DNA of 35,817 nucleotides from an uncultured Clostridia bacterium (GCA_934771675.1 CAKVMF010000001.1:1-35817), one strand, 5' to 3'. Counted from the stretch's first letter, positions 4,187 to 23,192 are shown. The notes: generated by a model not told the origin, from the sequence alone. Numbers and translations are program-made.

Positions 4187-6235
4187 TTAATTGTCAGTTG
4201 GGGTGGTTGGGTCGCTTGGGGTTTTGCTTGCAAGCGGTTCAGCTGGAGCTGCCAGCTCTTCTTGTTTTGGAGCTAAAACTTCTTCGAGCTTTGAGAGTTT
4301 TTCGCTGAGTTCAAGCCACTCATCTGCAAGTTTGTCAATTGTGATTTGAGTTGTTTCCATATCACCCTGAATCTCCATAAGTTTTTTGAAGTCACTGGCG
4401 ATTTCAGGATTTACAAAATCGTTTTGAAGTTGTTTCAAATGGCCTTCGGCTTTTGCAGAAGTTTCTTCAACTTTTTTCAAGCGGTTTGTTATTTTGTTTT
4501 TCTCTCTTGATGCAAGATATGGTGAAAGTGACAAGATTGGATCGGGTTCTTTTGGGTCATCAAAATCAACAGGATATTCTTTTTTTTCAGGTTTTGGAGT
4601 TTCAACTTTAGGTTCAAGTTTCATCTTTTTTGAAACAGGGTCACAGTACTCGGCAAATGTTCCATCAAAAAACTTTATTTCTGCCTGCTCAAAAACCAAA
4701 AGTTTGGTTGCAATTTTTTTTGTGAAATATCTATCATGAGAAACAAAAATAATTGTTCCTGTGTAATTCAAAAGCAAGTCTTCAAGCGTTTCTTTACTCA
4801 CAATATCCATATGGTTTGTGGGTTCATCCAAAATCAAAAGATTTGGTTTTTTCTGCAATATTTTTGCAAGTTCAAAGCGAACAAGTTCTCCGCCAGAAAG
4901 TGAGTTCATTTGTTTTGTTACGTCTTTTCCAGAGAACAAAAATGCACCGAGTGCGGATCTAACTTCATTTCCTGAAAGGTCTGGAAAGTCGTCTTGAAAT
5001 TCTTGAAAAACACTTTTTGTGCTCGAAAATTTTGATGCGAGCTGGGCAAAATAACCATATTCAACATGATAGCCAAACTTGAAATAGCCTGAAAGTTCAG
5101 GGATTTTTCCTGTTATGGTTTGAAGGAATGTTGATTTTCCAAGTCCATTTCCGCCAATAACGCCAAGACGTTCGCCACGCATGAGTTTTAAATTGACAGT
5201 TCCAAGTGGTTTTGATTTGTCGTAGCCAATTTTGAGATTTGTGCAACTCAAAACTTCGCTTCCACTTTCAATATCTGGCTTGATTTTTTTATGAAATGTT
5301 TTGCCGTCGGCTCGTTCTGGTGGTGGCAAAATATCAAGTTTTTCAAGATATTTAACTCTTGATTGAACAGCAGCGGCCTTTGTTGCTTTGTATCTAAAAC
5401 GCTCGATAAATTCATTTATATCAGCAATCTCACGCTGTTGAGCTTCATAATGTTTCAAAGCAATATCATAGTTTGCGTTTTTTGTTTCAATAAATTTTGT
5501 GTAGTTGCCGACATATTTTGTTAGTCTTTTATGTTCAATTTCATAAACAATATTTATTGTGTTGTCCAAAAATGCACGGTCGTGCGAAACAATAATAACG
5601 GCACTTTTATATGCTGAAATATAATCTTCAAGCCAAGCAACAGCCTTTATGTCCAAGTGGTTTGTTGGTTCGTCAAGAATAAGCAAGTCTGGTTTTGAAA
5701 GCATCAATTTTATAAATGCAATCTTTGTTTTTTGACCGCCAGAAAATTCTGAAAGTTTCTTTGCTTTGTCGTATTCACTAAAACCGAACGATGAAAGGGC
5801 TTTGTTGTATTCCGCGATATATGTGTAGCCGCCGAGCCTTTCAAATTCATCATGGAGTCTTGAAAACGTTTCAACCATTTTGTCGGTTGGATTTGTTTCA
5901 AGTTTGATTTGAATATCATCAAGTTTCGTTTTTAAATCTAAAATATTTTTGTAGCAAGTTTTGATTTCGTCTTCAAGAGAAATATTTTCATTGTCAAAAG
6001 TCATCTGCTTTAATGATGAAATTGAAGGGTTTCCCGTTTTAACAAAAACTGGAGCAGAATTATCTGGCTGGTGAAGTTCGATTTCGCCTGTTAAAATTTT
6101 AAGCAGGGTAGTTTTTCCTGAGCCATTTCTTCCAATGATTGCAATTTTGTCATGAGTGTTTATTTCAAACGAAAAGTTTTCGAGCAGTGATTCACCGCCA
6201 AACCCAAAATTCGCTTTGTTAATTTTTATTTGCAT
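4187..6235 (-). CDS. ABC-F family ATPase (two ABC cassettes, no TMD) with a coiled-coil and Pro/Thr-rich C-terminal tail
   Basis: Two Walker A motifs (GRNGSGKTTLL, GGNGLGKSTFL). Two signature/Walker B sets (LSGGQKTKIAF...LLILDEPTNHLD, LSGGELVRFEL...LLILDEPTNHMD). The inter-domain linker is typical of ABC-F. Confidence 0.9.
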   Translation of the reverse strand: MQIKINKANFGFGGESLLENFSFEINTHDKIAIIGRNGSGKTTLLKILTGEIELHQPDNSAPVFVKTGNPSISSLKQMTFDNENISLEDEIKTCYKNILDLKTKLDDIQIKLETNPTDKMVETFSRLHDEFERLGGYTYIAEYNKALSSFGFSEYDKAKKLSEFSGGQKTKIAFIKLMLSKPDLLILDEPTNHLDIKAVAWLEDYISAYKSAVIIVSHDRAFLDNTINIVYEIEHKRLTKYVGNYTKFIETKNANYDIALKHYEAQQREIADINEFIERFRYKATKAAAVQSRVKYLEKLDILPPPERADGKTFHKKIKPDIESGSEVLSCTNLKIGYDKSKPLGTVNLKLMRGERLGVIGGNGLGKSTFLQTITGKIPELSGYFKFGYHVEYGYFAQLASKFSSTKSVFQEFQDDFPDLSGNEVRSALGAFLFSGKDVTKQMNSLSGGELVRFELAKILQKKPNLLILDEPTNHMDIVSKETLEDLLLNYTGTIIFVSHDRYFTKKIATKLLVFEQAEIKFFDGTFAEYCDPVSKKMKLEPKVETPKPEKKEYPVDFDDPKEPDPILSLSPYLASREKNKITNRLKKVEETSAKAEGHLKQLQNDFVNPEIASDFKKLMEIQGDMETTQITIDKLADEWLELSEKLSKLEEVLAPKQEELAAPAEPLASKTPSDPTTPTDN

Positions 6236-9758: not shown

Positions 9759-10298
9759 ATGAAATATTTAATTGCAACAGATATTCACGGAAGTTCAATT
9801 TCGGCAAAAATAATCAAGGAAAAATTTGAAAAAATCGGTGCAAACAAACTGGTTTTGCTTGGCGATATTTTGTATCATGGTGCAAGAAATGATTTGCCAG
9901 AAGGTTACGCTCCAAAAGAAGTAACTGAAATTTTAAACTCACTTGCAGACAAAATTATTGCAGTTCGTGGAAATTGTGATAGCGAAGTTGACCAAATGGT
10001 TTTAAATTTCATGATAAATGAAAATGCTGCGATTGATATTGGCGGAAAATTTGTTTTTCTTACTCATGGTCATCATATAAATCCTGAAACTCCAGCAAAA
10101 CTTGCAAATGGAAGTATTGTGCTTTATGGACATTTTCATGTTACAAAGAAAACCGTTGTTGATGGAGTGACTTACATCAATGTTGCAAGCATAACGTTGC
10201 CAAAAAACGGCTGCGAAAAATGCTATGGAATATTGGATGAAAAAGGTGTTCAAATATTCAACTTAAACGACCAATTGATTCTTGAAGAAAAATTCTAA
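9759..10298 (+). CDS. YfcE/MJ0936-like metallophosphoesterase (phosphodiesterase)
   Basis: Metallophosphoesterase motifs are present in order: ATDIHGS, LGDILYHG, RGNCD, THGH, GHFH. GGAG RBS. Confidence 0.8.
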   Translation: MKYLIATDIHGSSISAKIIKEKFEKIGANKLVLLGDILYHGARNDLPEGYAPKEVTEILNSLADKIIAVRGNCDSEVDQMVLNFMINENAAIDIGGKFVFLTHGHHINPETPAKLANGSIVLYGHFHVTKKTVVDGVTYINVASITLPKNGCEKCYGILDEKGVQIFNLNDQLILEEKF

Positions 10299-12645: not shown

Positions 12646-12720
12646 GCTGGTGTGGCTCAGCGGTAGAGCACCACCTTGGTAAGGTGGGGGTCACGGGTCC
12701 GATTCCCGTCACCAGCTCCA
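12646..12720 (+). tRNA. tRNA-Thr (anticodon GGT), CCA encoded
   Basis: Manual cloverleaf: acceptor gctggtg/caccagc, D arm gctc-agcggta-gagc, anticodon arm ccacc-ttGGTaa-ggtgg, T arm acggg-tccgatt-cccgt, then t-cca. Confidence 0.9.
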
Positions 12721-12723
12721 TTA
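12676..12723. repeat. attL: 48-bp direct repeat (3' half of tRNA-Thr plus 3 nt)
   Basis: ttggtaaggtgggggtcacgggtccgattcccgtcaccagctccatta is identical at 12676-12723 and 23145-23192, checked base by base. Confidence 0.9.
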
Positions 12724-13295: not shown

Positions 13296-13421
13296 TAATA
13301 TCATAATACATTAGAAAATTCAAGTCCGCATTTAATTTTTTTGTGTTTGTGTCTTTTTTGTATTGTTAAAGGATTCCTTGTCGTTTGATAAAATTTGATC
13401 TTTTTAAGCTTATTGGCAAAA

Positions 13422-14357
13422 CTAGACAGCAAGCATTTTGCCCATTTTGTTCATCATATCTGTTTTGTAAGACATCATTGAATGGGTATATCTTGTAAGA
13501 GTTACAACTGGATTTTTATGTCCAAGAATTTCGGATAGGGTTTTAACGTCCATTCCCATTTCAATAGCACGAGTTGCAAAGGTATGGCGAAGTGAGTGAA
13601 AGTTTTTATAACCAACACCAATTTTGCTCAAAATTCTTTCATAAGTCCTTTGATAAGCTCTCGTTCCAACAATTCCGCCAGTGCGGGTTGAAATAACATA
13701 TTTTGAATTAGATGTTTTCTTAATTTTTTTCAAAATATCTAATAATGCTTTAGGAAGTGGGATAACTCTGCTTGAATTTTTTGTTTTAGGATTATCTATC
13801 ACAATTCTAGGCACACCATTCTCTTTTATTCTATAACTAGTTTTCGTAATGCTCATAATTCCTGTTTGAAAATCCATATCTTCCCAAGTGAGAGCTAATA
13901 GTTCTCCTAGTCTAATTCCAGTATAAAGGCAAATTATAATTCCTACATAATTGTTTTTGTTTGAAGCAAGACAATATTTTTCAATTTTTTCTTGCTCGTG
14001 TTTTTCAAAAGCCGTAACAGGTTTTTCGGTTGGACTTGGCAACTTAATTTTCTTTATTTCATCTCTTTGCACTTTGTCCAATGATTTAGCGAGTGCCATA
14101 CTTCCTTTCAAAACATTCACAATTCCAATAACTGAGTTGTTAGCAAGTTTTCCGTTGTTATTTAGATTACCATTTTCAAGTTCACTCAAAACAAAATCTT
14201 GAAAAATCTCGCCATTTAGGTCATCTAATTTATAACTCCCAAGCTTAGGATTGATGTGTTTTTCTATGATGTATTTGTATCTATCATAGGTTCTGAGTTT
14301 CACAGTGTGTTTTGTGTATTTTTCTAGCCATACACTTAGCCATTCTTTAAGTTTCAT
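13422..14357 (-). CDS. Tyrosine-type site-specific recombinase / integrase
   Basis: N-terminal SAM-like core-binding region. Catalytic blocks are YTGIRLGELLALTWEDMD (Arg I), HSLRHTFATRAI (HxxR) and LGHKNPVVTLTRYTH (His...Tyr). GGAGG RBS. Confidence 0.9.
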   Translation of the reverse strand: MKLKEWLSVWLEKYTKHTVKLRTYDRYKYIIEKHINPKLGSYKLDDLNGEIFQDFVLSELENGNLNNNGKLANNSVIGIVNVLKGSMALAKSLDKVQRDEIKKIKLPSPTEKPVTAFEKHEQEKIEKYCLASNKNNYVGIIICLYTGIRLGELLALTWEDMDFQTGIMSITKTSYRIKENGVPRIVIDNPKTKNSSRVIPLPKALLDILKKIKKTSNSKYVISTRTGGIVGTRAYQRTYERILSKIGVGYKNFHSLRHTFATRAIEMGMDVKTLSEILGHKNPVVTLTRYTHSMMSYKTDMMNKMGKMLAV

Positions 14358-14495
14358 ATAAAAATCCTCCTTATTTATTTTAACTTGTAAAGGTTGTCCT
14401 TCTATCTCTATAAGGACATCTAAAGTTAAAAAATTAAGGAAGTAAATTCATATTTTGAAAATTTCTTAAAATTATTTTTAAAAAACATATAAAAA

Positions 14496-14648
14496 GACCA
14501 CCTACTATTGCGACAGATGTATAAAATTTTTTTAAAAAGCCATAAATTTTCAATTTTTCAATACAAATTTTAATAAAGTATGTTATACTCAATGTGTATT
14601 GAATTAAAAAATATGTAAAAGAGACCATCTGTCGCAATAATAGTAGGC
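14496..14648. repeat. Imperfect inverted repeat pair flanking a ~100-bp promoter-containing segment upstream of the methyltransferase
   Basis: Left arm 14496-14519 is gaccacctactattgcgacagatg. The right arm 14623-14648, reverse-complemented, is gcctactattattgcgacagatggtc (19 matched nt plus a 3-nt indel). Between them is an extended -10, TGtTATACT, at 14581-14589, pointing at the M gene. Confidence 0.6.
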
Positions 14649-14698
14649 TTTTATTAAATGACAAAAAATCATCTATTTCTCTTTTACACAAGGGAGAT

Positions 14699-15784
14699 AT
14701 GATGGAAAGTAATAATGTTTTACGAGTATTTGAAGGATTTGCTGGTTATGGTGGTGGAAGTTTTGCTTTGCGAAATTTAAAGAAAAAACATAAAAATTTT
14801 AACTATGAAGTCGTAGCATTTTCAGAAATTGACAAGTATGCAATAGATTTGTTCAATGCTAATCATAAAGATAGTCATGGTGGACTAATTAAAAATTATT
14901 CAGATATTACAAAAGCAAATCCTAATGACGACGATTTTCCAGATTTTGATTTATTTACTGGGGGCTTTCCTTGCCAACCATTTTCTACCGCAGGTATGCA
15001 AAAAGGTGTGGATGACCCTTATGGTCGCGGAACATTGTTTGAACATATTATGAGAATTTGTAAAGTTAAAAAACCAAAATACATTCTTTTAGAAAATGTT
15101 AAAGGGTTGCTTTCTAAAAAATTTGATGAAACAAGAAAACAGATGTGTAATATGTTGCGTGACATGGGTTATGTTTCTGATAAAAATGACCCAAAGGAAT
15201 CTCCATTGGCTATGGCAGTATTGAATAGTAAAGATTATGGAATTCCACAAAATCGAGAAAGAGTTTGGATGTTTGCAAGACTTGGTGGTTTACCAAAGGA
15301 TTTTTCTATGATTCCGCCACAAAGAAAAAATGAATTAAGACTTGGCGATTTTTTAGACCCAGTCGATAAAATTCCTAAAAACTTATATCTATCAGACAAA
15401 CAAATTGAGCATTTAAAAGAAAAACATAATATTAATAGTTTTATTGTTGATAAACCACTTTGTTTTGATGTTTATAACAAAAAAATTAAAACAGATGGGT
15501 ATTCCATAACTTTAACAATGCCCGAGCATAATAGCATCAGAGTAATTGAAGCACATAAAGACAAAGAAGTAGTCCGAAAAATGTCTGTCACTGAACAATT
15601 TAGACTTATGGGATTAGAAGGGTTAGAAAATAATGGACGAGAAGTAGACATTTATTTTAATAATCAATCTTATACACAACTTTCTAAAAGAGCAGGCAAC
15701 GGCTGGGATGTTAATTTAGTAACCATTTTACTTGAACATATTTTTTCTCAACTTAAAGATGATGATATATTCTCAGATTTTTAA
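14699..15784 (+). CDS. DNA (cytosine-5)-methyltransferase
   Basis: Motif I FEGFAGYGG, motif IV GGFPCQPFS, motif VI LLENVKGL, motif VIII QNRERVW and motif X GNGW. The true start may be the second ATG (14702), which has better spacing from GGGAG. Confidence 0.9.
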   Translation: MMESNNVLRVFEGFAGYGGGSFALRNLKKKHKNFNYEVVAFSEIDKYAIDLFNANHKDSHGGLIKNYSDITKANPNDDDFPDFDLFTGGFPCQPFSTAGMQKGVDDPYGRGTLFEHIMRICKVKKPKYILLENVKGLLSKKFDETRKQMCNMLRDMGYVSDKNDPKESPLAMAVLNSKDYGIPQNRERVWMFARLGGLPKDFSMIPPQRKNELRLGDFLDPVDKIPKNLYLSDKQIEHLKEKHNINSFIVDKPLCFDVYNKKIKTDGYSITLTMPEHNSIRVIEAHKDKEVVRKMSVTEQFRLMGLEGLENNGREVDIYFNNQSYTQLSKRAGNGWDVNLVTILLEHIFSQLKDDDIFSDF

Positions 15785-15793
15785 TTAAGGAGT

Positions 15794-16879
15794 ATGTTGA
15801 TGAATATAAAGTTTAAAATAGATGAAAAATCTTTATTTTATGGAATAAAAAATGATTTTGAGCGTGGACAAACAGCAACTGTTCACACTCCAATTAATCA
15901 AGCTTCAAACCCAAAAGATTGGCATAATGATATTTTACAATTAACAAAGCATAATTTGGCGGTCAAATTTTTACCAGATATGCTTTTGTCAAGATGTTTA
16001 AAAAATACTACTTCGCAAGCAAAAAGTATAATTAAACAATTTTTTGAATTTAAAAGCATATTTCTTGATGGAGTTAAATTAAATTGCAACTCTTCATTTG
16101 GGATGTATATCAAAGAAGAAACAGATGAATTTATTATCAAGAGAGATGGAACAAGAACAAAAAATACACATTTAGGTAGAATGAAATTGCATTACCCTAT
16201 AACTTTAAAATTCAAAAGCGATGGATTCAATGTGGATAACAAAGATGTTTTAGATTGCATTTTAAAGCAGAATGGTGGATTTGCTTATGTTGTCAGGGGC
16301 TTTGAATATAATCTTGAAAATTCAACATTAAATTTTATAACAACAATGGTCGGGCCAGAAAATATTTTACTTTCAAATGTGTTTAAAAGAGCAAAAGGAA
16401 CAGGCAAAAAACTATTACTTGAAGAATTTGATGCAAATGATTTTGAATTTGTAAATGATTATTTAGTAAACAAAACTGAAAGCGTTACAGATATCCAAAG
16501 TGTTTTTGAATTAGCAAATAAAACAAAAGTTGAAAATGGTGCTCGCGGGGAACAAATAATTTTAAATATGCTACATGACAATAATCCAAATATAACAGAT
16601 ATTTATCATACAAGTGTTGACTACCCAACATCTCCATACGATATTGAATATGTTGAAAATGGAATTAAAAAATATATTGAAGTGAAATCAACACAGGGCT
16701 CTAAAAAAGTATTTAATATGTCTGCTGGTGAAATTAAATTTATGAACACATATCAAAATAATTATATTTTATATCTTGTAACAAATGTTAGAGATTCTTC
16801 TTGTAAAATATTTAAATTTGTAAAAGGACAAATTGAAAAATTAAAATTTGAACATCCTAGCACAAGATTTTTTGCGTAA
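15794..16879 (+). CDS. Putative cognate restriction endonuclease with a C-terminal PD-(D/E)xK (DUF3883-like) domain
   Basis: It begins 9 nt after the methyltransferase stop. The C-terminus GARGEQIILNML...SPYDIEYVENGIKKYIEVKSTQGS...FNMSAGEIKF fits the D...E-x-K nuclease pattern seen in DUF3883. The likely start is the ATG at 15800, 7 nt after AAGGAG. Confidence 0.6.
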   Translation: MLMNIKFKIDEKSLFYGIKNDFERGQTATVHTPINQASNPKDWHNDILQLTKHNLAVKFLPDMLLSRCLKNTTSQAKSIIKQFFEFKSIFLDGVKLNCNSSFGMYIKEETDEFIIKRDGTRTKNTHLGRMKLHYPITLKFKSDGFNVDNKDVLDCILKQNGGFAYVVRGFEYNLENSTLNFITTMVGPENILLSNVFKRAKGTGKKLLLEEFDANDFEFVNDYLVNKTESVTDIQSVFELANKTKVENGARGEQIILNMLHDNNPNITDIYHTSVDYPTSPYDIEYVENGIKKYIEVKSTQGSKKVFNMSAGEIKFMNTYQNNYILYLVTNVRDSSCKIFKFVKGQIEKLKFEHPSTRFFA

Positions 16880-16884
16880 TTAAA

Positions 16885-16918
16885 AGACCACCTATTCTAA
16901 CGATAGATGGTCTTTTTT
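16885..16918 (+). terminator. Terminator after the R-M operon
   Basis: agaccacctat...atagatggtct hairpin followed by tttttt. Confidence 0.7.
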
Positions 16919-17032
16919 ACTGAATTTTATTAAATTTTTATGATATTTTCGCAAAATTTTAACCATTTTACTATAAATTTGCGATTTTTTATTTGATTTC
17001 CTTTATCTTTTGATTACACCTATCGTTAGAAT
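16885..17032. repeat. Second inverted repeat pair, related to 14496-14648, flanking ~105 bp upstream of the SLOG gene
   Basis: 16885-16913 (agaccacctattctaacgatagatggtct) shares 24/29 nt with the 14492-14520 copy. The partner 17017-17032 (cacctatcgttagaat) is the reverse complement of attctaacgataggtg. Confidence 0.5.
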
Positions 17033-17100
17033 TGATGTTTAGTAATGTTTGAAATTTAGCCGTCAATTATTTGCTCTTTTTTACTTAAAAGGAGCAAACC

Positions 17101-17556
17101 TTGAACGAGTTTAAAGATGATAAAGTTGTGGCTTTTACTGGTCATAGATACGAGTGGCATTGCATTGGCATAGAAAACAAATTGCCCGAAGTTCTAGAAG
17201 ATTTAATAAATAAAGGATACACCATCTTTTATGACGGACACTATGGTGCTTTTGATGAAAAGTGTGCACACGCAGTCTTACAATTAAAACATAAATATCC
17301 GCACATCAAACTAATTCGTATTTTAACATATTATCATCACGACAAAGAAAAATATGATTTGCCATCGTGCTATGATGGTTCAATATTTCCAGAGATAGAA
17401 GAATTGCATTACAAACAAAAAATCACAAAAAGGAACGAGTGGATAATAGACCACTGCGACATTCTCGTTTGCCACATAGAAGAAACCTATAAAAGCGGAG
17501 CCTATCGCACTTTAAAATACGCTCAAAAACAAAACAAACCAATAATTTACATCTAA
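17101..17556 (+). CDS. SLOG-fold protein of the YpsA/DUF1273 (SPbeta YoqJ-like) type
   Basis: VVAFTGHRYE..., DGHYGAFDEKCAHAVLQLKHKYPHIKLIRILTYYHH and the C-terminal SGAYRTLKYAQKQNKPII match the DUF1273 layout (TGHR, GxxGxD, LK..YP.IKL). The start is TTG, 6 nt after AAGGAG. Confidence 0.55.
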   Translation: MNEFKDDKVVAFTGHRYEWHCIGIENKLPEVLEDLINKGYTIFYDGHYGAFDEKCAHAVLQLKHKYPHIKLIRILTYYHHDKEKYDLPSCYDGSIFPEIEELHYKQKITKRNEWIIDHCDILVCHIEETYKSGAYRTLKYAQKQNKPIIYI

Positions 17557-17566
17557 AACTTAGTTT

Positions 17567-20212
17567 TTATATTTTTTTTGGATGAGTCAAATTATACTTA
17601 TTATAGTTTAGCAAAATGTCTTTTTCTTCATTTGTCATATCTAATTTTAATATTTCATCTTCTATACTTTTTAATGAATTGTAGAAATTTAATTTCTCTT
17701 GTTCACCATTAATTTCACCATAGCAAAACTCAGATTTAATATATTTGACTATATTATCTTTTTCTTTACTCAACATTTTTAGAGCAAAAGGTTTATTTAT
17801 TTGTATCATATTAATTATTGCATTTGTCATCACATAATCATTTCTAACTTCATTTTTACTTAAAGATTTACCTTTGTTACTTAAATATATTGCTCCATGC
17901 GGACACCAATAGCACAAATTCAATGATATTTTATTTATATGATTTTCTGAAATTTTAATTAAATCGAAAAGAAATTTACTATCATAAGAAAAGGCCATTA
18001 AAATCTCAAATTCATTTTCTGTATTCCATAATAATTTAATTGTATTTGATAATTTATTAATATTTACATTTTTAATAATTTCTTTACATTTATTCTTATC
18101 TAATAAATAAATAATTCTCATAAATTCAGATATGCTTTGCCAATGAAAAATATAATTATTTTCAATTTCTTGTGACAACTTGGAAAGTGAAATACTATTT
18201 ATAAATTTGCTTTTTATATCTGTATATTGTTTTTTTCTAATAAATCGTTGTTCATACTTATTATACCCTAAAATGGTAAATAAGAAAAGGTCATCTAAAT
18301 TAACCCAAACCTTCAATGGATTTAAATTAAGCAACGAGCATGTTTTTTCTATAATTGCATTTTCTATGTTCTTTAAGCCATTATTCTCATTGATAAAAAT
18401 AGCTGACAAATATGAAAGAACATACAAGTTATCCAAATTAGCATTATTTATTTTTAAAATAAATTTTTCGACGTCTAAATGCTGAGTAAATGTAATTCCT
18501 ATATACTTACTTCTATAAAGTATTCTATCAAAAAAACGAATAAACACATACAAATCTTTTGTTGAACTTCCATTAAATAATTCAAATATTCTTTTAAAGT
18601 CTATGCCTTTAAGATAATAATCAAGTATCTCATAGTTTTTTCTACCCGCTTCATTAATTAACATGTTTATAAAATCACCAACACAAATAAAATCTTCACC
18701 AACACATGAATTAATAACAGATAGCAATGCTTTCCTCGTGCTATCATCATGAACTATTTTATGATAGTAAGAAATTCTTTCTATTACAGAGAAAAAATAT
18801 GGTTCATTTTTCTTTTCAAAAACTTTATTATATATCTTATCTATTTCTTCTTTTGTAAACAATGAATAATAAACTCTATTAGTTTTATACTTAATTGAGA
18901 TTTCGTGGGGACTATTAATAATAAACCATAACAAACCAAGATTGCAAAAAGTGTTATTATCTATTAATGTTAGAAAACATTTATTTGCAAAGTCTTGATT
19001 GTCAAACGAAGATAAAATATAACTATTCAAAAATGAAATTGCTGTATAAATATGTGAAAACTTATAACTTTCATTTTCTTTTATTATAAATTTATCTTGT
19101 ATAATAAGTTTTTTCTCAAATTCATCATAATTAAATATTTTACTTGAAATTAATTCATTTAACTTCGAAATTAGTATAAAGTTATCTGCTGACAAAATTT
19201 GATAAATAGCTATTACAGCCAACAAGTCAAGAAATTCATCTTTTTTATAATCTTCCATTTTTGTTTTTATATAATCAGATGCTCCTCTGATTATATAATT
19301 AAAATAGTATGGTGACTTTTGACTTGCCGCTTTGTTGATTAACCATGAAAATGATGTATCGCCAAAATTGAATCCAACTTTTTTATTAATTTTTTTAACT
19401 ATTGGAATTATTTGTTCAGCATTTTGAGTATAATATTCATACAAGATATTTACCGATTGTTTTGATGTTATTCTTACACTATTCTCGTTTGAATTAATTA
19501 CATCTGTAAATACACAAATAACTTTACATTCCTTTTTTGCCTGCTGTTGAATTGTATTTGCAATATTTTTATATAAATGTGCATTATCTAAAATGTATAT
19601 TGCAGGAGAGAGCTCACTATATAAGGTTGGATTATCTTTTCCATTATATTTATAGACTTTATATCCTTTTTTTGAATATTCATATGCAATTTGAAATGCT
19701 GTAAGTGATTTTCCTGAACCAGATTCTCCAATTATATTTACATAATTTAATAATTCTAAACAGTTTATTGCATCCTGAAAAATATTTAATTTAGGGCATG
19801 CTTCTACATAATTTTGATTTAATCCCACACCAAGTATTGCACCTTCAATCCCTTGTTGGTTGTCAAAATTAATGTCATCCCAACATTGTTGTTTGTCTAA
19901 TGATTGAATTCCTTTTGCTAGGTTATCATTCCTATCTTTCACTATTTTTAGCCATTCATTTTTATATTTTATTACTTGACCGGACGTTAATTTTTTACCA
20001 AAACCTCCAGTAACTTGTGTATCGTTATGACATTGAAGACATAGAACAGCAAGGTTTTCGATTGAATTGTTAGATGGGTTTTCATCAATATGATGAATTT
20101 GAACATCTTTTCCTTTCTCTCTGCATACACAACAAGTTCTATCAGATAGTTTTAATACTTCATCTGAAAGTTCTATTGGAATCGGAATCCTTTGTTTTTT
20201 TGTTTTTTTCAT
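17567..20212 (-). CDS. HNH endonuclease + P-loop NTPase + long helical-repeat protein (881 aa), STAND/Avs-like architecture
   Basis: aa 27-62 is CCVCREKGKDVQIHHIDENPSNNSIENLAVLCLQCHN (Zn-bound HNH). Walker A is GESGSGKS (aa 162-169) and Walker B is AIYILDN (aa 204-210). About 640 aa of I/L/N/K/Y-rich predicted-helical sequence follows. AAGGAGG RBS. Confidence 0.7.
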   Translation of the reverse strand: MKKTKKQRIPIPIELSDEVLKLSDRTCCVCREKGKDVQIHHIDENPSNNSIENLAVLCLQCHNDTQVTGGFGKKLTSGQVIKYKNEWLKIVKDRNDNLAKGIQSLDKQQCWDDINFDNQQGIEGAILGVGLNQNYVEACPKLNIFQDAINCLELLNYVNIIGESGSGKSLTAFQIAYEYSKKGYKVYKYNGKDNPTLYSELSPAIYILDNAHLYKNIANTIQQQAKKECKVICVFTDVINSNENSVRITSKQSVNILYEYYTQNAEQIIPIVKKINKKVGFNFGDTSFSWLINKAASQKSPYYFNYIIRGASDYIKTKMEDYKKDEFLDLLAVIAIYQILSADNFILISKLNELISSKIFNYDEFEKKLIIQDKFIIKENESYKFSHIYTAISFLNSYILSSFDNQDFANKCFLTLIDNNTFCNLGLLWFIINSPHEISIKYKTNRVYYSLFTKEEIDKIYNKVFEKKNEPYFFSVIERISYYHKIVHDDSTRKALLSVINSCVGEDFICVGDFINMLINEAGRKNYEILDYYLKGIDFKRIFELFNGSSTKDLYVFIRFFDRILYRSKYIGITFTQHLDVEKFILKINNANLDNLYVLSYLSAIFINENNGLKNIENAIIEKTCSLLNLNPLKVWVNLDDLFLFTILGYNKYEQRFIRKKQYTDIKSKFINSISLSKLSQEIENNYIFHWQSISEFMRIIYLLDKNKCKEIIKNVNINKLSNTIKLLWNTENEFEILMAFSYDSKFLFDLIKISENHINKISLNLCYWCPHGAIYLSNKGKSLSKNEVRNDYVMTNAIINMIQINKPFALKMLSKEKDNIVKYIKSEFCYGEINGEQEKLNFYNSLKSIEDEILKLDMTNEEKDILLNYNKYNLTHPKKI

Positions 20213-20231
20213 TTTTCCTCCTTAGCAAATT

Positions 20232-20468
20232 TCAATCTTCCAAAACAACTACATTCACTTTATGTGAATAAATAGTGCAAGCGTCTATGGCTATCATATT
20301 TTTTGTTGTAAAAGGTTCAAAATTGGCTTTATCTCCAAATTCTTCGTATTTAATTGGGTTTTGTTCGTGCCAAAGTGCTGAACAATGCCAATGACCACAA
20401 ACTATTGGTTTATTTGGCTCGTAGATTTCATAGCAACCTTTAATTTTAAACTGGCTGTAATTTTTTTG
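20232..20468 (-). pseudogene. 5'-truncated remnant of a metallophosphoesterase (Ser/Thr phosphatase-like)
   Basis: The minus-strand frame ending at the TGA (20234-20232) reads ...KIKGCYEIYEPNKPIVCGHWHCSALWHEQNPIKYEEFGDKANFEPFTTKNMIAIDACTIYSHKVNVVVLED. This has a GHxH block and an IDAC block with a C-terminal beta-strand. There is no start codon, and the frame closes upstream at 20469-20471, inside the abiEii 3' end. Confidence 0.45.
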
Positions 20469-21312
20469 TTATCTCAATAAAAAATTCTTTACTCCACAAA
20501 TCAAGTTTTGTTTTGTCTTTTATGAAAGGCAAGACATCTTGTTTTGCTTGTTCTATATCTAGACTTTCAAATCTTTCGTTTAGTAATGCTTTTAGATTAT
20601 CAATAGTTAAATCATAATCTTCATTAATAAACTTTGATTGAACCAACTTTGCTTTCAAATTTTCCAAATTCACTCTTGCTCCAATTGACAAAAAGAAAAT
20701 ATAATCGTAAAAATCTCTACCTTTCACTCTTGATTTCCAATTCCTGCAAAGGCAAGCATGAATTTTACCTGCAAATAATGATTGCAAATCATATAATCTT
20801 ACTTGATAAGGAGAAGGCAACAATCCAAACTTAGTTTCATAAGTTGCACCAGTTGGTGGGTTAATGTCCACTTCAAACTTAATTCGTATAGCTTCTTCTT
20901 TATTGATAAATTTAGAATCTTCACTATCTTCATAGAAAGATAAAATATGTTCTTTTGTGTTACCCTTTAAGAAAGCAGATTTTATATTGGAATCAACAGA
21001 TTTAATTTTCTCTGTCACATTGAAATTTAAGCCAAGTGATTTTGTCTCGTTTTCAATATATTGAAAATATTTGGTTAAATCGAAATCTGGATTTTGTGTA
21101 ATTAATGAAAAATCTAAATCTTCACTAAATCTATCCAATCCATAAAATATTCTTAGTGCAGTTCCACCATAAAATGCCGCTTCTTTAAAAAATCCACCAC
21201 GAGATAGTCCACAAAGAACTATTTCTTGAACAATCTCTTTTATGGCATTCTTCTTGTCTTCGATATTGTTAATTTGATATTTTGATAACATCTGGCTTAA
21301 TACTTGTTGCAT
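20446..21312 (-). CDS. AbiEii/AbiGii-family nucleotidyltransferase toxin (type IV TA)
   Basis: FKEAAFYGGTALRIFYGLDRFSEDLDFSL is the G(G/S)...D-x-D Pol-beta NTase motif in the AbiEii context. It is followed by ...RIKFEVDINPP... and RVKGRDFYDYIFF. The ATG at 21312 lies 8 nt after AAGGAG. Confidence 0.8.
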   Translation of the reverse strand: MQQVLSQMLSKYQINNIEDKKNAIKEIVQEIVLCGLSRGGFFKEAAFYGGTALRIFYGLDRFSEDLDFSLITQNPDFDLTKYFQYIENETKSLGLNFNVTEKIKSVDSNIKSAFLKGNTKEHILSFYEDSEDSKFINKEEAIRIKFEVDINPPTGATYETKFGLLPSPYQVRLYDLQSLFAGKIHACLCRNWKSRVKGRDFYDYIFFLSIGARVNLENLKAKLVQSKFINEDYDLTIDNLKALLNERFESLDIEQAKQDVLPFIKDKTKLDLWSKEFFIEITKKLQPV

Positions 21313-21313
21313 T

Positions 21314-21901
21314 TTACTTTTCTCCTTTAATAAATTTTGCAAGTAAATTTAAGTTTGTTGAGTGATATAGTGGCGCAAGTTTTAAAATGTCTTGCTTGGT
21401 TAATTCGTTAAACTTGTCTTCATCTATTCTTAAATCTTCAAATAGCAATCTTTCTAAATCTTTAATAGTTTTCACGGGAGATATAGTATAAAGTTTATCG
21501 CAAAGCGCTTTTTCTGCTGTTGCCATTTGATATGAATATTCTTCATCTTGAAAAGCAAGGACTCCCAAACTAAATACCGCTTTAGGAATATCTCTATAAA
21601 TAAAAGTTCCAAAACAATTTGTATATGTCTTAATTTTTTTCTTATTGTAGGTTGCACATGTAAATGTGTTGTAAACCGCTTCGGGAATTAATCCTTGCTG
21701 ATACAAAACATAATCAAATGATAAATAAGATGGACCATAAATAAATTGTGCAAGCCTTGAACCATTAGTATTTGAATTGGTTTCATAGATTCCTTTTACC
21801 AAAGGAAATAACTTTCCTTGCTTTACATCTCTATTTATTTTTGCTAATGGATTCGAATAATCAGCATATTGTTCTTTTAATTGTTGAGTTGTGACTATCA
21901 T
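21314..21901 (-). CDS. AbiEi-family antitoxin / transcriptional autoregulator
   Basis: 195 aa, directly upstream of abiEii with a 1-nt gap. The N-terminal region MIVTTQQLKEQYADYSNPLAKINRDVKQGKLFPLVKGIYE is wHTH-like and typical of AbiEi_4-type antitoxins. The ATG at 21901 has a GGAGGG RBS. Confidence 0.7.
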   Translation of the reverse strand: MIVTTQQLKEQYADYSNPLAKINRDVKQGKLFPLVKGIYETNSNTNGSRLAQFIYGPSYLSFDYVLYQQGLIPEAVYNTFTCATYNKKKIKTYTNCFGTFIYRDIPKAVFSLGVLAFQDEEYSYQMATAEKALCDKLYTISPVKTIKDLERLLFEDLRIDEDKFNELTKQDILKLAPLYHSTNLNLLAKFIKGEK

Positions 21902-21910
21902 ATATTCCCT

Positions 21911-22010
21911 CCAGATAATGCAATTATATAATATTATCTGGGGAAAATCAACCAATTTCACGATATTTTCTCCAAATAATGCAGAAAAAGTGCATTTTCT
22001 GGAGAAAATA
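21911..22010 (-). promoter_or_regulatory. abiE promoter with two related palindromic operators
   Basis: Minus-strand -35 TTGATT (plus 21946-21951), a 17-nt spacer, then -10 TATAAT (plus 21923-21928). IR1 is ccagataat (21911-21919) with attatctgg (21933-21941), straddling the -10. IR2 is tattttctcca (21964-21974) with tggagaaaata (22000-22010), plus an inner aatgca/tgcatt pair. Confidence 0.6.
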
Positions 22011-22156
22011 TGGTTTTGTAAAAAATCATTTCACATAGTTTAATGATATAAACTAAACTGCTTTTAATAATTTTTATATCATTGCAATGATACAAGCAAC
22101 GATAATTTTTTACAATTACAAATAAAATAACACCAGAAAAATTCTGGTGCCACTTT

Positions 22157-22795
22157 TTATTGGAAGTTTCTATGATAAATTGTTTCAAGAGTTTGATAAT
22201 AAACAATTCTTGATTTCTTGTATGGTTCTTTGTCTTTGTTGTTAAGATATAAGACTTTTACATCTTCCCACAAATTCTTTTCTTTAATTAAGTCTTCAAC
22301 ATGTCTATGATTTGTTGCAACTTTTCTTAAAGCCCACGAGTAATTACCAGTATTTTTATCAAATCTAATATATTTTTGTCTTTCCATACCCCCTTCATCT
22401 TCATAGTAATTAACAATTGCAAAATCAACACTACAAATAACTTTATTTCTTTGTGCATTTAGTTTTTTTATTGTTATTACGGAAGTTGAATCTTCGGAGT
22501 AATCATAACTATCATCAAAATATTTATTAAATAAATCAATAAACTTTTGTTTTAGTAATTTTGCATTATTATATCTGTTGTTAAAAACTTTTTGAATTAC
22601 AATATTATAATCCAAGTCAAAGCCTTGATTACCATTTTCTACTCTTGTAATCAATTTTCTTTTAGCACTTCCAATTAAGTTGAATTGAAAAGTTAAAATT
22701 CCATTTTCTCTCAAATCTCTTTGAATAGATTTCAAAATTTCATCAACCTCCAACTTAAAAGGTTGATATTCACTTTTCGGTACATATTCAAACAT
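22157..22795 (-). CDS. Pol-beta-superfamily nucleotidyltransferase, family unassigned (212 aa)
   Basis: LIGSAKRKLITRVENGNQGFDLDYNI gives G-S ... D-x-D, and a later ICSVDFAIV strand supplies a third acidic residue. AAGGAGG RBS and an extended -10 upstream. Confidence 0.55.
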   Translation of the reverse strand: MFEYVPKSEYQPFKLEVDEILKSIQRDLRENGILTFQFNLIGSAKRKLITRVENGNQGFDLDYNIVIQKVFNNRYNNAKLLKQKFIDLFNKYFDDSYDYSEDSTSVITIKKLNAQRNKVICSVDFAIVNYYEDEGGMERQKYIRFDKNTGNYSWALRKVATNHRHVEDLIKEKNLWEDVKVLYLNNKDKEPYKKSRIVYYQTLETIYHRNFQ

Positions 22796-23020
22796 ATTTT
22801 TTTTACCTCCTTAAAGTTTGAATTGGAGGGGGATTGATAAATAATTTACCAATCAGGGAGCAAATAAATTTCATAGCCAATCCATTTGCAAGACAATTAT
22901 AACATAATATTTTTAATATGTCCATATCCGTTGCAATCAAATTTAACTAGCAAAGTATTAGATATTTTTAGGCAATTTTAGATAGTTTTAAACAGCCAAA
23001 GTATTGCTCAAAAATGGCCG

Positions 23021-23063
23021 TAGGTGTCAATAGGTGTCAACTTTTTTGAAAGGTTAACACCTA
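23021..23063. repeat. Clustered 10-nt repeats next to attR (candidate integrase arm-type sites)
   Basis: taggtgtcaa occurs twice in tandem (23021-23040), with an inverted copy ttaacaccta at 23054-23063. Confidence 0.45.
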
Positions 23064-23144
23064 AACTATTTTTACATCTAAAAAAACTAGTAAAATCAAG
23101 GGCTTTAAGACATAGGGTTATAGTTTTTCAAAAATATTTTTAAG

Positions 23145-23192
23145 TTGGTAAGGTGGGGGTCACGGGTCCGATTCCCGTCACCAGCTCCATTA
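23145..23192. repeat. attR: displaced 3' fragment of tRNA-Thr (48 bp, identical to 12676-12723)
   Basis: Base-by-base identity. The upstream nucleotide differs (g vs c), so the repeat ends there. Confidence 0.9.

Follow-up and report, generated by a model that had tools for sequence, protein, structure and literature searches.

In the antiviral STAND proteins Avs1–4, binding of a phage protein by the C-terminal sensor is followed by oligomerization, which the NTPase drives, and by activation of an N-terminal DNase (PMC13276650). Avs5 (AVAST type 5) is composed of a SIR2 domain, an nSTAND3 NTPase (PF20720), and helical repeats (Mol Cell/bioRxiv Avs5 paper). These proteins are among the closest described systems to an 881-amino-acid (aa) protein encoded by an intact open reading frame (ORF) at 17567–20212 on the minus strand of a 35,817-nucleotide (nt) stretch of DNA from an uncultured Clostridia bacterium (GCA_934771675.1, CAKVMF010000001.1:1-35817), which is called the window hereafter. 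An initial annotation, made from the sequence alone, had described an HNH nuclease, a compact P-loop NTPase, and helical repeats in this protein, with a convergent YpsA/DUF1273-type SLOG gene and a decayed metallophosphoesterase gene as its neighbors, and had proposed an undescribed multi-gene defense module. The coordinates, motifs, and neighbors were all present as described. The module itself was not borne out, and the gene appears to be a known kind of single-gene cassette.

The 881-aa protein resembles Avs5 (EfAvs5 and PaAvs5) in its nSTAND3 domain and its single-gene effector–NTPase–helical-repeat layout, in its fold matches to EfAvs5 and AVAST5 filaments, and in the SIR2-like heads carried by its nearest NTPase/sensor-body relatives. 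It differs from Avs5 in its head, a predicted Zn-stabilized HNH DNase to which SIR2 was not matched, whereas the head of Avs5 is a SIR2 NADase. The hosts also differ, since the window protein is found in Clostridia and Avs5 in Proteobacteria, and neither similarity to solved chains at the level of hidden Markov models (HMMs) nor a PADLOC Avs match was found for the window protein. It shares its working logic with Avs1–4 (Gao et al. 2022) and shows a fold match to Avs4, but it belongs to another NTPase clade and has another sensor, there is no match at the model level, and terminase or portal triggers are not assumable here. The effector–NTPase–sensor order, which had been likened to Avs/STAND logic, holds for this protein.

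Domain architecture and family placement

The NTPase core of the protein was identified as nSTAND3. The Pfam model scored 35.4 bits (cutoff, 27.2) over residues 143–213. Conservation was counted in 48 aligned sequences, namely the window protein and 47 relatives of its NTPase/sensor body, and the nSTAND3 match was present in 45 of them. The motifs GESGSGKS (162–169), YILDN (205–210), and KVICVFTD (230–237) were all found. Walker A (G162–S169), the YIxDNAH strand containing D209, and T236 were invariant in 13 homologues; in the larger alignment, G165, G167, and K168 were kept in every sequence and D209 in 47. An AlphaFold2 model of the whole protein (mean pLDDT 75.8, mostly above 80–90 from approximately residue 450) displayed a five-stranded P-loop core at residues 157–248, followed by almost pure helix from approximately residue 250 to 875, a stretch of about 630 residues.

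Four residues of the arm that follows the core, Q338, D343, H387, and G426, were invariant in 48 of 48 sequences. H387 stands directly after a predicted β-hairpin (376–385). The winged-helix domains of STAND proteins carry a conserved His, at the MHD-like position of NLRs and Apaf-1. H387 would occupy the place of this His in the model, and from this we infer its role. The C-terminal region gave Foldseek matches to TPR, ARM, and HEAT repeats and to the sensor arms of STAND proteins. Its 440 residues diverged fastest between two subclades (34–36% identity compared with 52–58% elsewhere), which is presumably what is to be expected of a sensor.

When the whole model was compared with the PDB, human SAMD9 (9zjr) was the top match with an E value of 9.6e-9, followed by EfAvs5 (9jap; E value, 5.4e-6), a STAND-TPR protein, Avs4 with portal (8dgf; E value, 7e-5), and AVAST5 filaments (9nc9), and, at lower rank, by NAIP/NLRC4 and the Dark apoptosome. 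Foldseek gave a probability of 1.0 to SAMD9, EfAvs5, 6mfv, Avs4, AVAST5, NAIP/NLRC4, and Dark. SAMD9 is likewise an antiviral protein with a STAND-type NTPase and a helical-repeat arm. However, it is eukaryotic, carries other effector and accessory domains, and shares only about 10% sequence identity with the window protein, at a whole-chain template modeling (TM) score of 0.17. The initial annotation had seen no STAND signatures, had suggested a separate family, and had named a Foldseek search as a check. That suggestion was not supported: the Pfam nSTAND3 cutoff was passed, STAND folds were matched, nearly all relatives carried nSTAND3, and a His follows the hairpin.

The N-terminal head was assigned to the HNH nucleases. 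C27, C28, C30, H40, H41, N53, C58, C61, and H62 were invariant in the 13 homologues, which span 43–98% identity. Individual HNH models matched weakly: Pfam HNH_3 reached 23.4 bits, under its cutoff of 24.8, and the ZorE HNH model of PADLOC and the IscB HNH region of NCBIfam gave E values of 4e-6 and 2e-6. A family profile, on the other hand, retrieved dozens of HNH proteins at approximately 1e-35 over residues 3–107. Residues 5–102 shared 58% identity over 98 aa (E value, 1e-33) with the head of P0069, a protein of HNH-NB-ARC-TPR type, and the same head subtype was also found on an nSTAND1 protein (P0112). The NTPase and TPR sensor of these HNH-NB-ARC-TPR and HNH-nSTAND1 proteins are unrelated to those of the window protein.

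When 1.84 billion representatives were searched exhaustively with the profile, 4354 matches were obtained at E≤1e-3, among which two groups were distinguished. Hundreds of proteins of 900–1100 aa matched over residues ~105–860 only and had different N-termini, and short or unrelated proteins matched over residues 3–107 only, i.e., the HNH head. A single representative matched from end to end at 50% clustering, and only 13 near-full-length clusters were present among 5.8 billion sequences; the HNH-nSTAND3 combination is therefore rare. The heads of the relatives comprised SIR2-like, PtuB-like and other HNH, HSDR_N or Cap4-like nucleases, and SMEK_N. Residues 111–823 were 31% identical (E value, 2e-89) to a SIR2-headed protein (P0016). 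Because the body is akin to this SIR2-headed protein and the head to that of an NB-ARC/TPR protein, the window protein is effector-swapped, and the exchange of heads on antiviral STANDs seen here is textbook effector shuffling. PADLOC matches to PDC-S65 and PDC-S73 among the relatives were set aside, as they lay on SIR2 heads or on the P-loop only and not on the NTPase/sensor body.

Septu was also considered, as it combines an ATPase with an HNH nuclease and PtuB-like HNH heads occur among the proteins related to the NTPase/sensor body. PtuA, however, is ABC/SMC-type and acts with a separate PtuB, whereas the window protein is STAND-type and a single polypeptide. Neither PtuA nor PtuB was matched in it, and Septu was rejected. 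Readings as a homing endonuclease or as a transcription-factor-type STAND were rejected as well, in view of the nSTAND3-type NTPase, the intact catalytic residues of the HNH head, and swap boundaries that fall in conserved flanks.

Taken as a whole, the protein can be described as an effector-swapped, Avs5-like nSTAND3 protein that forms neither a separate nor a new NTPase family. What is novel is the rare HNH-effector variant; the nSTAND3 Avs5-like type of immune protein is already known. The domain identities, family membership, effector shuffling, conservation of catalytic residues, and status as a cargo cassette are regarded as established. We consider it probable that the gene is a self-contained, single-gene Avs-like candidate in which HNH has replaced SIR2, with an Avs-type mechanism suggested by analogy. 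By this mechanism, the resting monomer would be auto-inhibited until the C-terminal α-solenoid binds a phage-derived trigger. The nucleotide-bound nSTAND3 module would then drive oligomerization, and the oligomer would juxtapose the N-terminal Zn-HNH heads so that DNA cleavage is switched on and the infection is aborted. As a compact and tractable single-gene candidate, it would bring Avs5-type (nSTAND3) immunity to gut Clostridia, and its effector would be a DNase where that of Avs5 is an NADase.

Several observations weigh against this explanation. The whole-chain TM-scores of the Foldseek matches were low (0.15–0.25), and the HNH head and residues 270–313 were poorly modeled. Sequence searches of the PDB, either with the single protein or with a 48-sequence profile (also at E≤10), returned only P-loop noise and SIR2 heads, and HMM searches did not link the solved Avs5, Avs4, and SAMD9 chains even at E≤10. 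PADLOC v2, which the initial annotation had proposed to run, placed the NTPase/sensor body in no system and matched it with no model, Avs models included. Since the HMM link was not found, the kinship with characterized Avs5 rests on the shared Pfam family and the fold, and as PADLOC model coverage is also missing, the protein was filed as Avs-like nSTAND3 with an HNH effector and not as Avs5 proper. In addition, the second acidic position of Walker B is Asn in the window protein, and hydrolysis may for this reason be weak. This Asn had been pointed out as unusual; it is indeed present, but it is not peculiar to the window protein, as position 210 is Asp in 39 of the 48 sequences and Asn in 9, including SIR2-headed P0016. 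Lastly, the self-contained nature of the gene is put in question by its convergent neighbor. The 3′ flank was examined in 11 independent contexts of homologues of the 881-aa protein, and a convergent YpsA gene was found in four: the window, L007 (STAND identity, 74%), L011 (61%), and L001 (45%). The YpsA of L001 is only 27% identical, so that the arrangement recurs in a distant pair.

A further reading is that the proteins matching over residues ~105–860 form an unnamed Avs clade and/or that the YpsA gene, placed between the two exchangeable slots of the island, licenses or regulates the island cargo in trans, which we regard as unlikely. Such a clade would be marked by its own pre-NTPase segment (residues 101–145), and its sensor may respond to a trigger that is new for Avs proteins. 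In the segment, W111 was conserved in 44, A125 in 46, L131 in 47, and C139 in 45 of the 48 sequences, and pLDDT was low. A degenerate DNA pattern for NQxGIExAIxGxGLNQN found three genome loci and returned nothing from metagenome or viral collections.

Exchange of cargo in sister islands

The gene lies in a 10.5-kb island enclosed by two identical 48-bp direct repeats (Table 1), with lower GC content inside than outside. The gene order is integrase (−), Dcm and NOV_C (+), YpsA (+), HNH-NTPase (−), phosphoesterase stub, AbiEii and AbiEi (−), and a 212-aa protein (−). A defense setting at a tRNA, between restriction-modification (R-M) and toxin–antitoxin systems, had been noted initially and was confirmed by the R-M pair, AbiE, and tRNA-Thr. 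Four further islands, L029–L032, were found through a 96%-identical YpsA and have a common backbone with the window at 92–96% nt identity. Positions 4340–14119 of L029 (and also L030–L032) were compared with positions 13418–23192 of the window. Two slots were exchanged between conserved flanks. In slot 1, Dcm and NOV_C in the window are replaced in L029 by EcoRI_methylase and GmrSD/HNH. In slot 2, window positions 17557–20209, essentially the HNH-STAND ORF with short flanks, are non-homologous to L029, which carries an 835-aa ATPase identified as PADLOC candidate PDC-S06 (E value, 2e-119) and a 44-aa ORF. The junction alignments place the edges of homology at 17556, with the YpsA stop codon, and at 20210, a few bases beyond the stop codon of the stub. 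PDC-S06, a non-homologous AAA_13/SMC-like ATPase, fills exactly this slot of the sister island as an allelic alternative.

The same phosphoesterase stub is found upstream of PDC-S06 in L029–L032. Because YpsA and the stub both flank the unrelated PDC-S06 in the sister islands, they are island backbone around a cargo slot and not partners of the 881-aa protein, and the 881-aa gene itself is an exchangeable single-gene cassette in a tRNA-Thr integrative defense island. The near-single-ORF swap between HNH-STAND and PDC-S06 is strong natural evidence that slot 2 holds defense cargo. It also calls for caution, as tight and recurrent neighbors such as a SLOG gene and a phosphoesterase stub can be backbone passengers. 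The layout of the island (integrase, R-M slot, YpsA, cargo slot, AbiE) provides a lead on cassette exchange.

The cargo could also be a STAND-regulated nuclease that serves the mobile element in its maintenance, in addiction, or in inter-element competition, instead of host anti-phage immunity. The gene and its homologues always occur on integrative or mobile DNA near integrases, resolvase, TnpV, and Fic; relatives are carried on plasmids, and none were found in phage genomes, where the 881-aa protein gave no tblastn match. However, the slot alternates with a PADLOC defense candidate, the island otherwise consists of R-M and Abi genes, and Avs immune proteins have this architecture and this shuffling of effectors, which makes an element-serving role improbable. 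Homologues adjoin R-M, GmrSD, IetA-like, and PD-(D/E)xK genes besides integrases and Fic, and distant plasmid relatives adjoin TIR, restriction enzyme, and Hachiman genes.

The YpsA-type gene and the phosphoesterase remnant

The YpsA gene (17101–17556, plus strand) encodes 151 aa and converges on the 881-aa ORF with a gap of 10 bp. It scored 28.1 bits with Pfam YpsA (cutoff, 27.7), and its AlphaFold2 model (pLDDT 88.4) best matched B. subtilis YpsA in the PDB (2NX2; TM 0.77; E value, 4.6e-8), followed by ShosA (TM 0.66), MCP, DprA, and LOG. In the GxD motif, G49 was nearly invariant and D52 invariant. The convergent SLOG protein proposed in the initial annotation is thereby supported by Pfam, fold, and coordinates. 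It retains the SLOG fold and GxD of B. subtilis YpsA and ShosA, with 19% identity to the former, but it differs from both in having no gpsB or phosphoribosyltransferase partner and in being an island backbone gene.

YpsA might act as a generic trans-acting partner (a regulator, an antitoxin-like brake, or a nucleotide sensor) of any slot-2 cargo, as it is kept beside the slot in every version of the backbone together with a conserved spacer of ~210–220 bp, and resembles ShosA of ShosTA in fold. The two cargos HNH-STAND and PDC-S06 nevertheless have no common feature. In L019–L028, YpsA comes after a type I R-M cassette, and its followers are unrelated and non-defense-looking. Backbone linkage by descent accounts for the pattern without any function, and we give little credence to such a partnership. 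It was observed that YpsA is always located 3′ of an R-M cassette on the same strand (window, L029, L007, L011, and L019), and that this cassette is type II, type IV-like, or type I depending on the island. The spacer between them, which covers 16886–17100 in the window and 7786–8000 in L029, is conserved within the island family of the window, L029, L007, and L011, while YpsA of the L019 type lies further away, behind a helix-turn-helix gene. Spacer and YpsA may form a recombination anchor between the two variable slots.

The originally proposed module, in which the HNH-NTPase would have as partners the since decayed phosphoesterase upstream and/or the SLOG protein, the latter sensing or processing a nucleotide signal, draws on the YpsA gaps of 10–44 bp in the window, L007, L011, and L001 and on locus L017, where an intact phosphoesterase gene lies immediately upstream of the 881-aa homologue. 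SLOG proteins have also been linked to conflict systems in the literature, and ShosA is the second-best fold match of YpsA. Against this, most homologues lack both neighbors, which rules against a three-gene module: YpsA was absent from 7 of the 11 contexts, and the window-type phosphoesterase was found in no homologue locus beyond the window's own lineage. Neither an SLOG gene nor an intact metallophosphoesterase is thus a conserved neighbor, which the initial annotation had named as a check. The YpsA subfamily, moreover, comprises more than 145 clusters, some with more than 1000 member sequences, compared with 13 for HNH-STAND (about ten times as many), accompanies other neighbors too, and has homologues in Bacillus phages. 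The functional SLOG link was accordingly dropped. With a 96%-identical YpsA converging on PDC-S06 and the same stub beside it, the module appears to be largely refuted by the sister-island comparison and is quite improbable.

The history of the phosphoesterase gene could be followed in L017, a Clostridia metagenome-assembled genome that is 97.6% identical to window positions 19336–20432, which cover the 5′ part of the 881-aa gene. L017 carries an intact 240-aa Metallophos gene (DIHG, GDLFDRG, and GNHE) directly upstream of its STAND homologue, and further upstream another abiE pair, with an AbiEii that shares only 20% identity with that of the window. The window stub (...KPIVCGHWHC...IAIDAC...VVVLED, then the stop codon) ends 19 nt before the ATG of the 881-aa ORF and corresponds to residues 175–240 of the L017 protein at 91% identity. 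It keeps the last 66 of 240 codons, having lost the start codon and the N-terminal DxH, GD, and GNHE motifs, and only 13 nt separate its breakpoint from the stop codon of AbiEii. The initial suggestion that the arrival of the abiE pair clipped this gene is supported, because the near-identical L017 locus has the intact gene and a different abiE pair. The further suggestion of an ancestral phosphoesterase and HNH-NTPase operon was not upheld, since the stub also precedes PDC-S06.

That the 881-aa gene is an inactive, decaying relic with an impaired ATPase, as the non-acidic Asn at position 210 and the replacement of the conserved G280 by a stop codon in the 99%-identical L017 copy (L017 38–40; either a pseudogene or an assembly error) could suggest, is highly improbable, given an intact ORF with a strong Shine–Dalgarno sequence (AAGGAGG at 20223–20217; ATG at 20212–20210), catalytic and Zn-binding residues that are all invariant across the homologues, and the occurrence of DN in relatives such as P0016.

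Island features and further loci

The coordinates of the island and its genes are listed in Table 1. The boundaries are an addition to the initial annotation, which had named a tRNA island without limits.

Table 1. Features of the island and of the 881-aa protein, with positions counted from the first nucleotide of the window.
Feature	Coordinates	Strand	Evidence or remark
attL, 48-bp repeat over the 3′ part of tRNA-Thr	12676–12723	+	Left boundary; ARAGORN, tRNA gene 12646–12720
Integrase segment aligned with L029	13418–14504		~92.5% nt identity
Tyrosine integrase, 311 aa, backbone	13422–14357	−	Pfam Phage_integrase and Phage_int_SAM_3
Variable slot 1: Dcm C5-methyltransferase and NOV_C putative restriction nuclease	14699–15784 and 15794–16879	+	Pfam
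Backbone block: 215-bp spacer and YpsA-type SLOG gene (17101–17556)	16886–17556	+	95.1% nt identity to L029 7786–8456
Slot 2 cargo: 881-aa HNH-nSTAND3 candidate defense gene	17567–20212	−	ORF; Pfam nSTAND3
Residues 441–881: α-solenoid C-terminal region, presumed sensor	17570–18892	−	AlphaFold2 model, all helical
Residues 251–440: helical and winged-helix-like arm	18893–19462	−	Invariant Q338, D343, H387, G426
Residues 146–250: nSTAND3 P-loop NTPase core	19463–19777	−	Walker A G162–S169, Walker B D209–N210, T236
Residues 101–145: family-specific conserved pre-NTPase segment	19778–19912	−	W111, NQxGIExAIxGxGLNQN, C139-P
Residues 1–100: predicted Zn-stabilized HNH nuclease effector	19913–20212	−	CCxC...HH...N...CxxCH; invariant catalytic/Zn residues
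Segment aligned with L029: stub, AbiEii, AbiEi, 212-aa gene, attR	20210–23192		95.8% nt identity
Calcineurin-like phosphoesterase 3′ remnant, backbone, non-functional	20232–20447	−	Translation
Backbone AbiEii toxin (20446–21342) and AbiEi antitoxin (21314–21961)	20446–21961	−	PADLOC, 9e-109 and 2e-58
212-aa backbone protein	22157–22795	−	No Pfam match; PADLOC 'Cyclase' (CD-NTase) weak, 4.8e-4
attR, second 48-bp repeat copy	23145–23192	+	Right boundary

The island is flanked by ordinary chromosomal housekeeping genes. Those on its left side encode ABC-F, Tex, NAD synthase, and CinA, and those on its right side encode DUF2130, a UvrD/RQC/HRDC helicase, and PPDK. The integrase is 95.5% identical in aa sequence to that of L029 and 64% identical to that of L007. 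In slot 1, the Pfam E values were 4.7e-59 for DNA_methylase and 5.7e-16 for NOV_C. AbiEii and AbiEi are 95–98% identical in aa sequence to the L029 and L031 copies. The listed start codon of AbiEi is GTG; the PADLOC match begins at residue 22, an ATG (MIVTTQQ...) is present at codon 21, and the true start is probably at about 21901. The 212-aa protein, which is 92% identical to its L029 copy, may be a minimal nucleotidyltransferase. A promoter and terminator scan around the 881-aa gene was uninformative, with 31 promoter-like sites where 28.5 were expected, and the convergent gap of 10 bp contained no terminator. An intact Metallophos_2 gene of 179 aa was observed on the chromosome outside the island (9759–10298, plus strand); it is 27% identical to the L017-type phosphoesterase and unrelated to the stub.

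In L017 (3405–3581 and 3839–7553), a complete tRNA-Thr and an extra 44-bp 5′ tRNA fragment lie at the right end of the island, and a Gabija-like pair (a UvrD-like helicase and AAA_15/OLD-TOPRIM) lies just beyond this end. The tRNA-Thr locus resembles a hotspot in which islands stand in tandem or have been rearranged.

Two more loci were noted among the relatives. On a Klebsiella IncFIA plasmid (NZ_AP021931.1; L034 5407–10356), a 1040-aa distant relative of the NTPase/sensor body with no PADLOC match lies in a defense island next to a restriction endonuclease, a 549-aa metallophosphoesterase and HAD pair, and Hachiman; this phosphoesterase is a different and larger protein than the window type. 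In L009 (3602–10441), the STAND homologue converges on an operon encoding a 486-aa protein, an IetA-like AAA protein (PADLOC, 1e-28), an HSP70-like 821-aa protein, and a 131-aa protein, followed by an integrase 47% identical to that of the window. This operon is possibly another uncharacterized defense cassette at an equivalent position.

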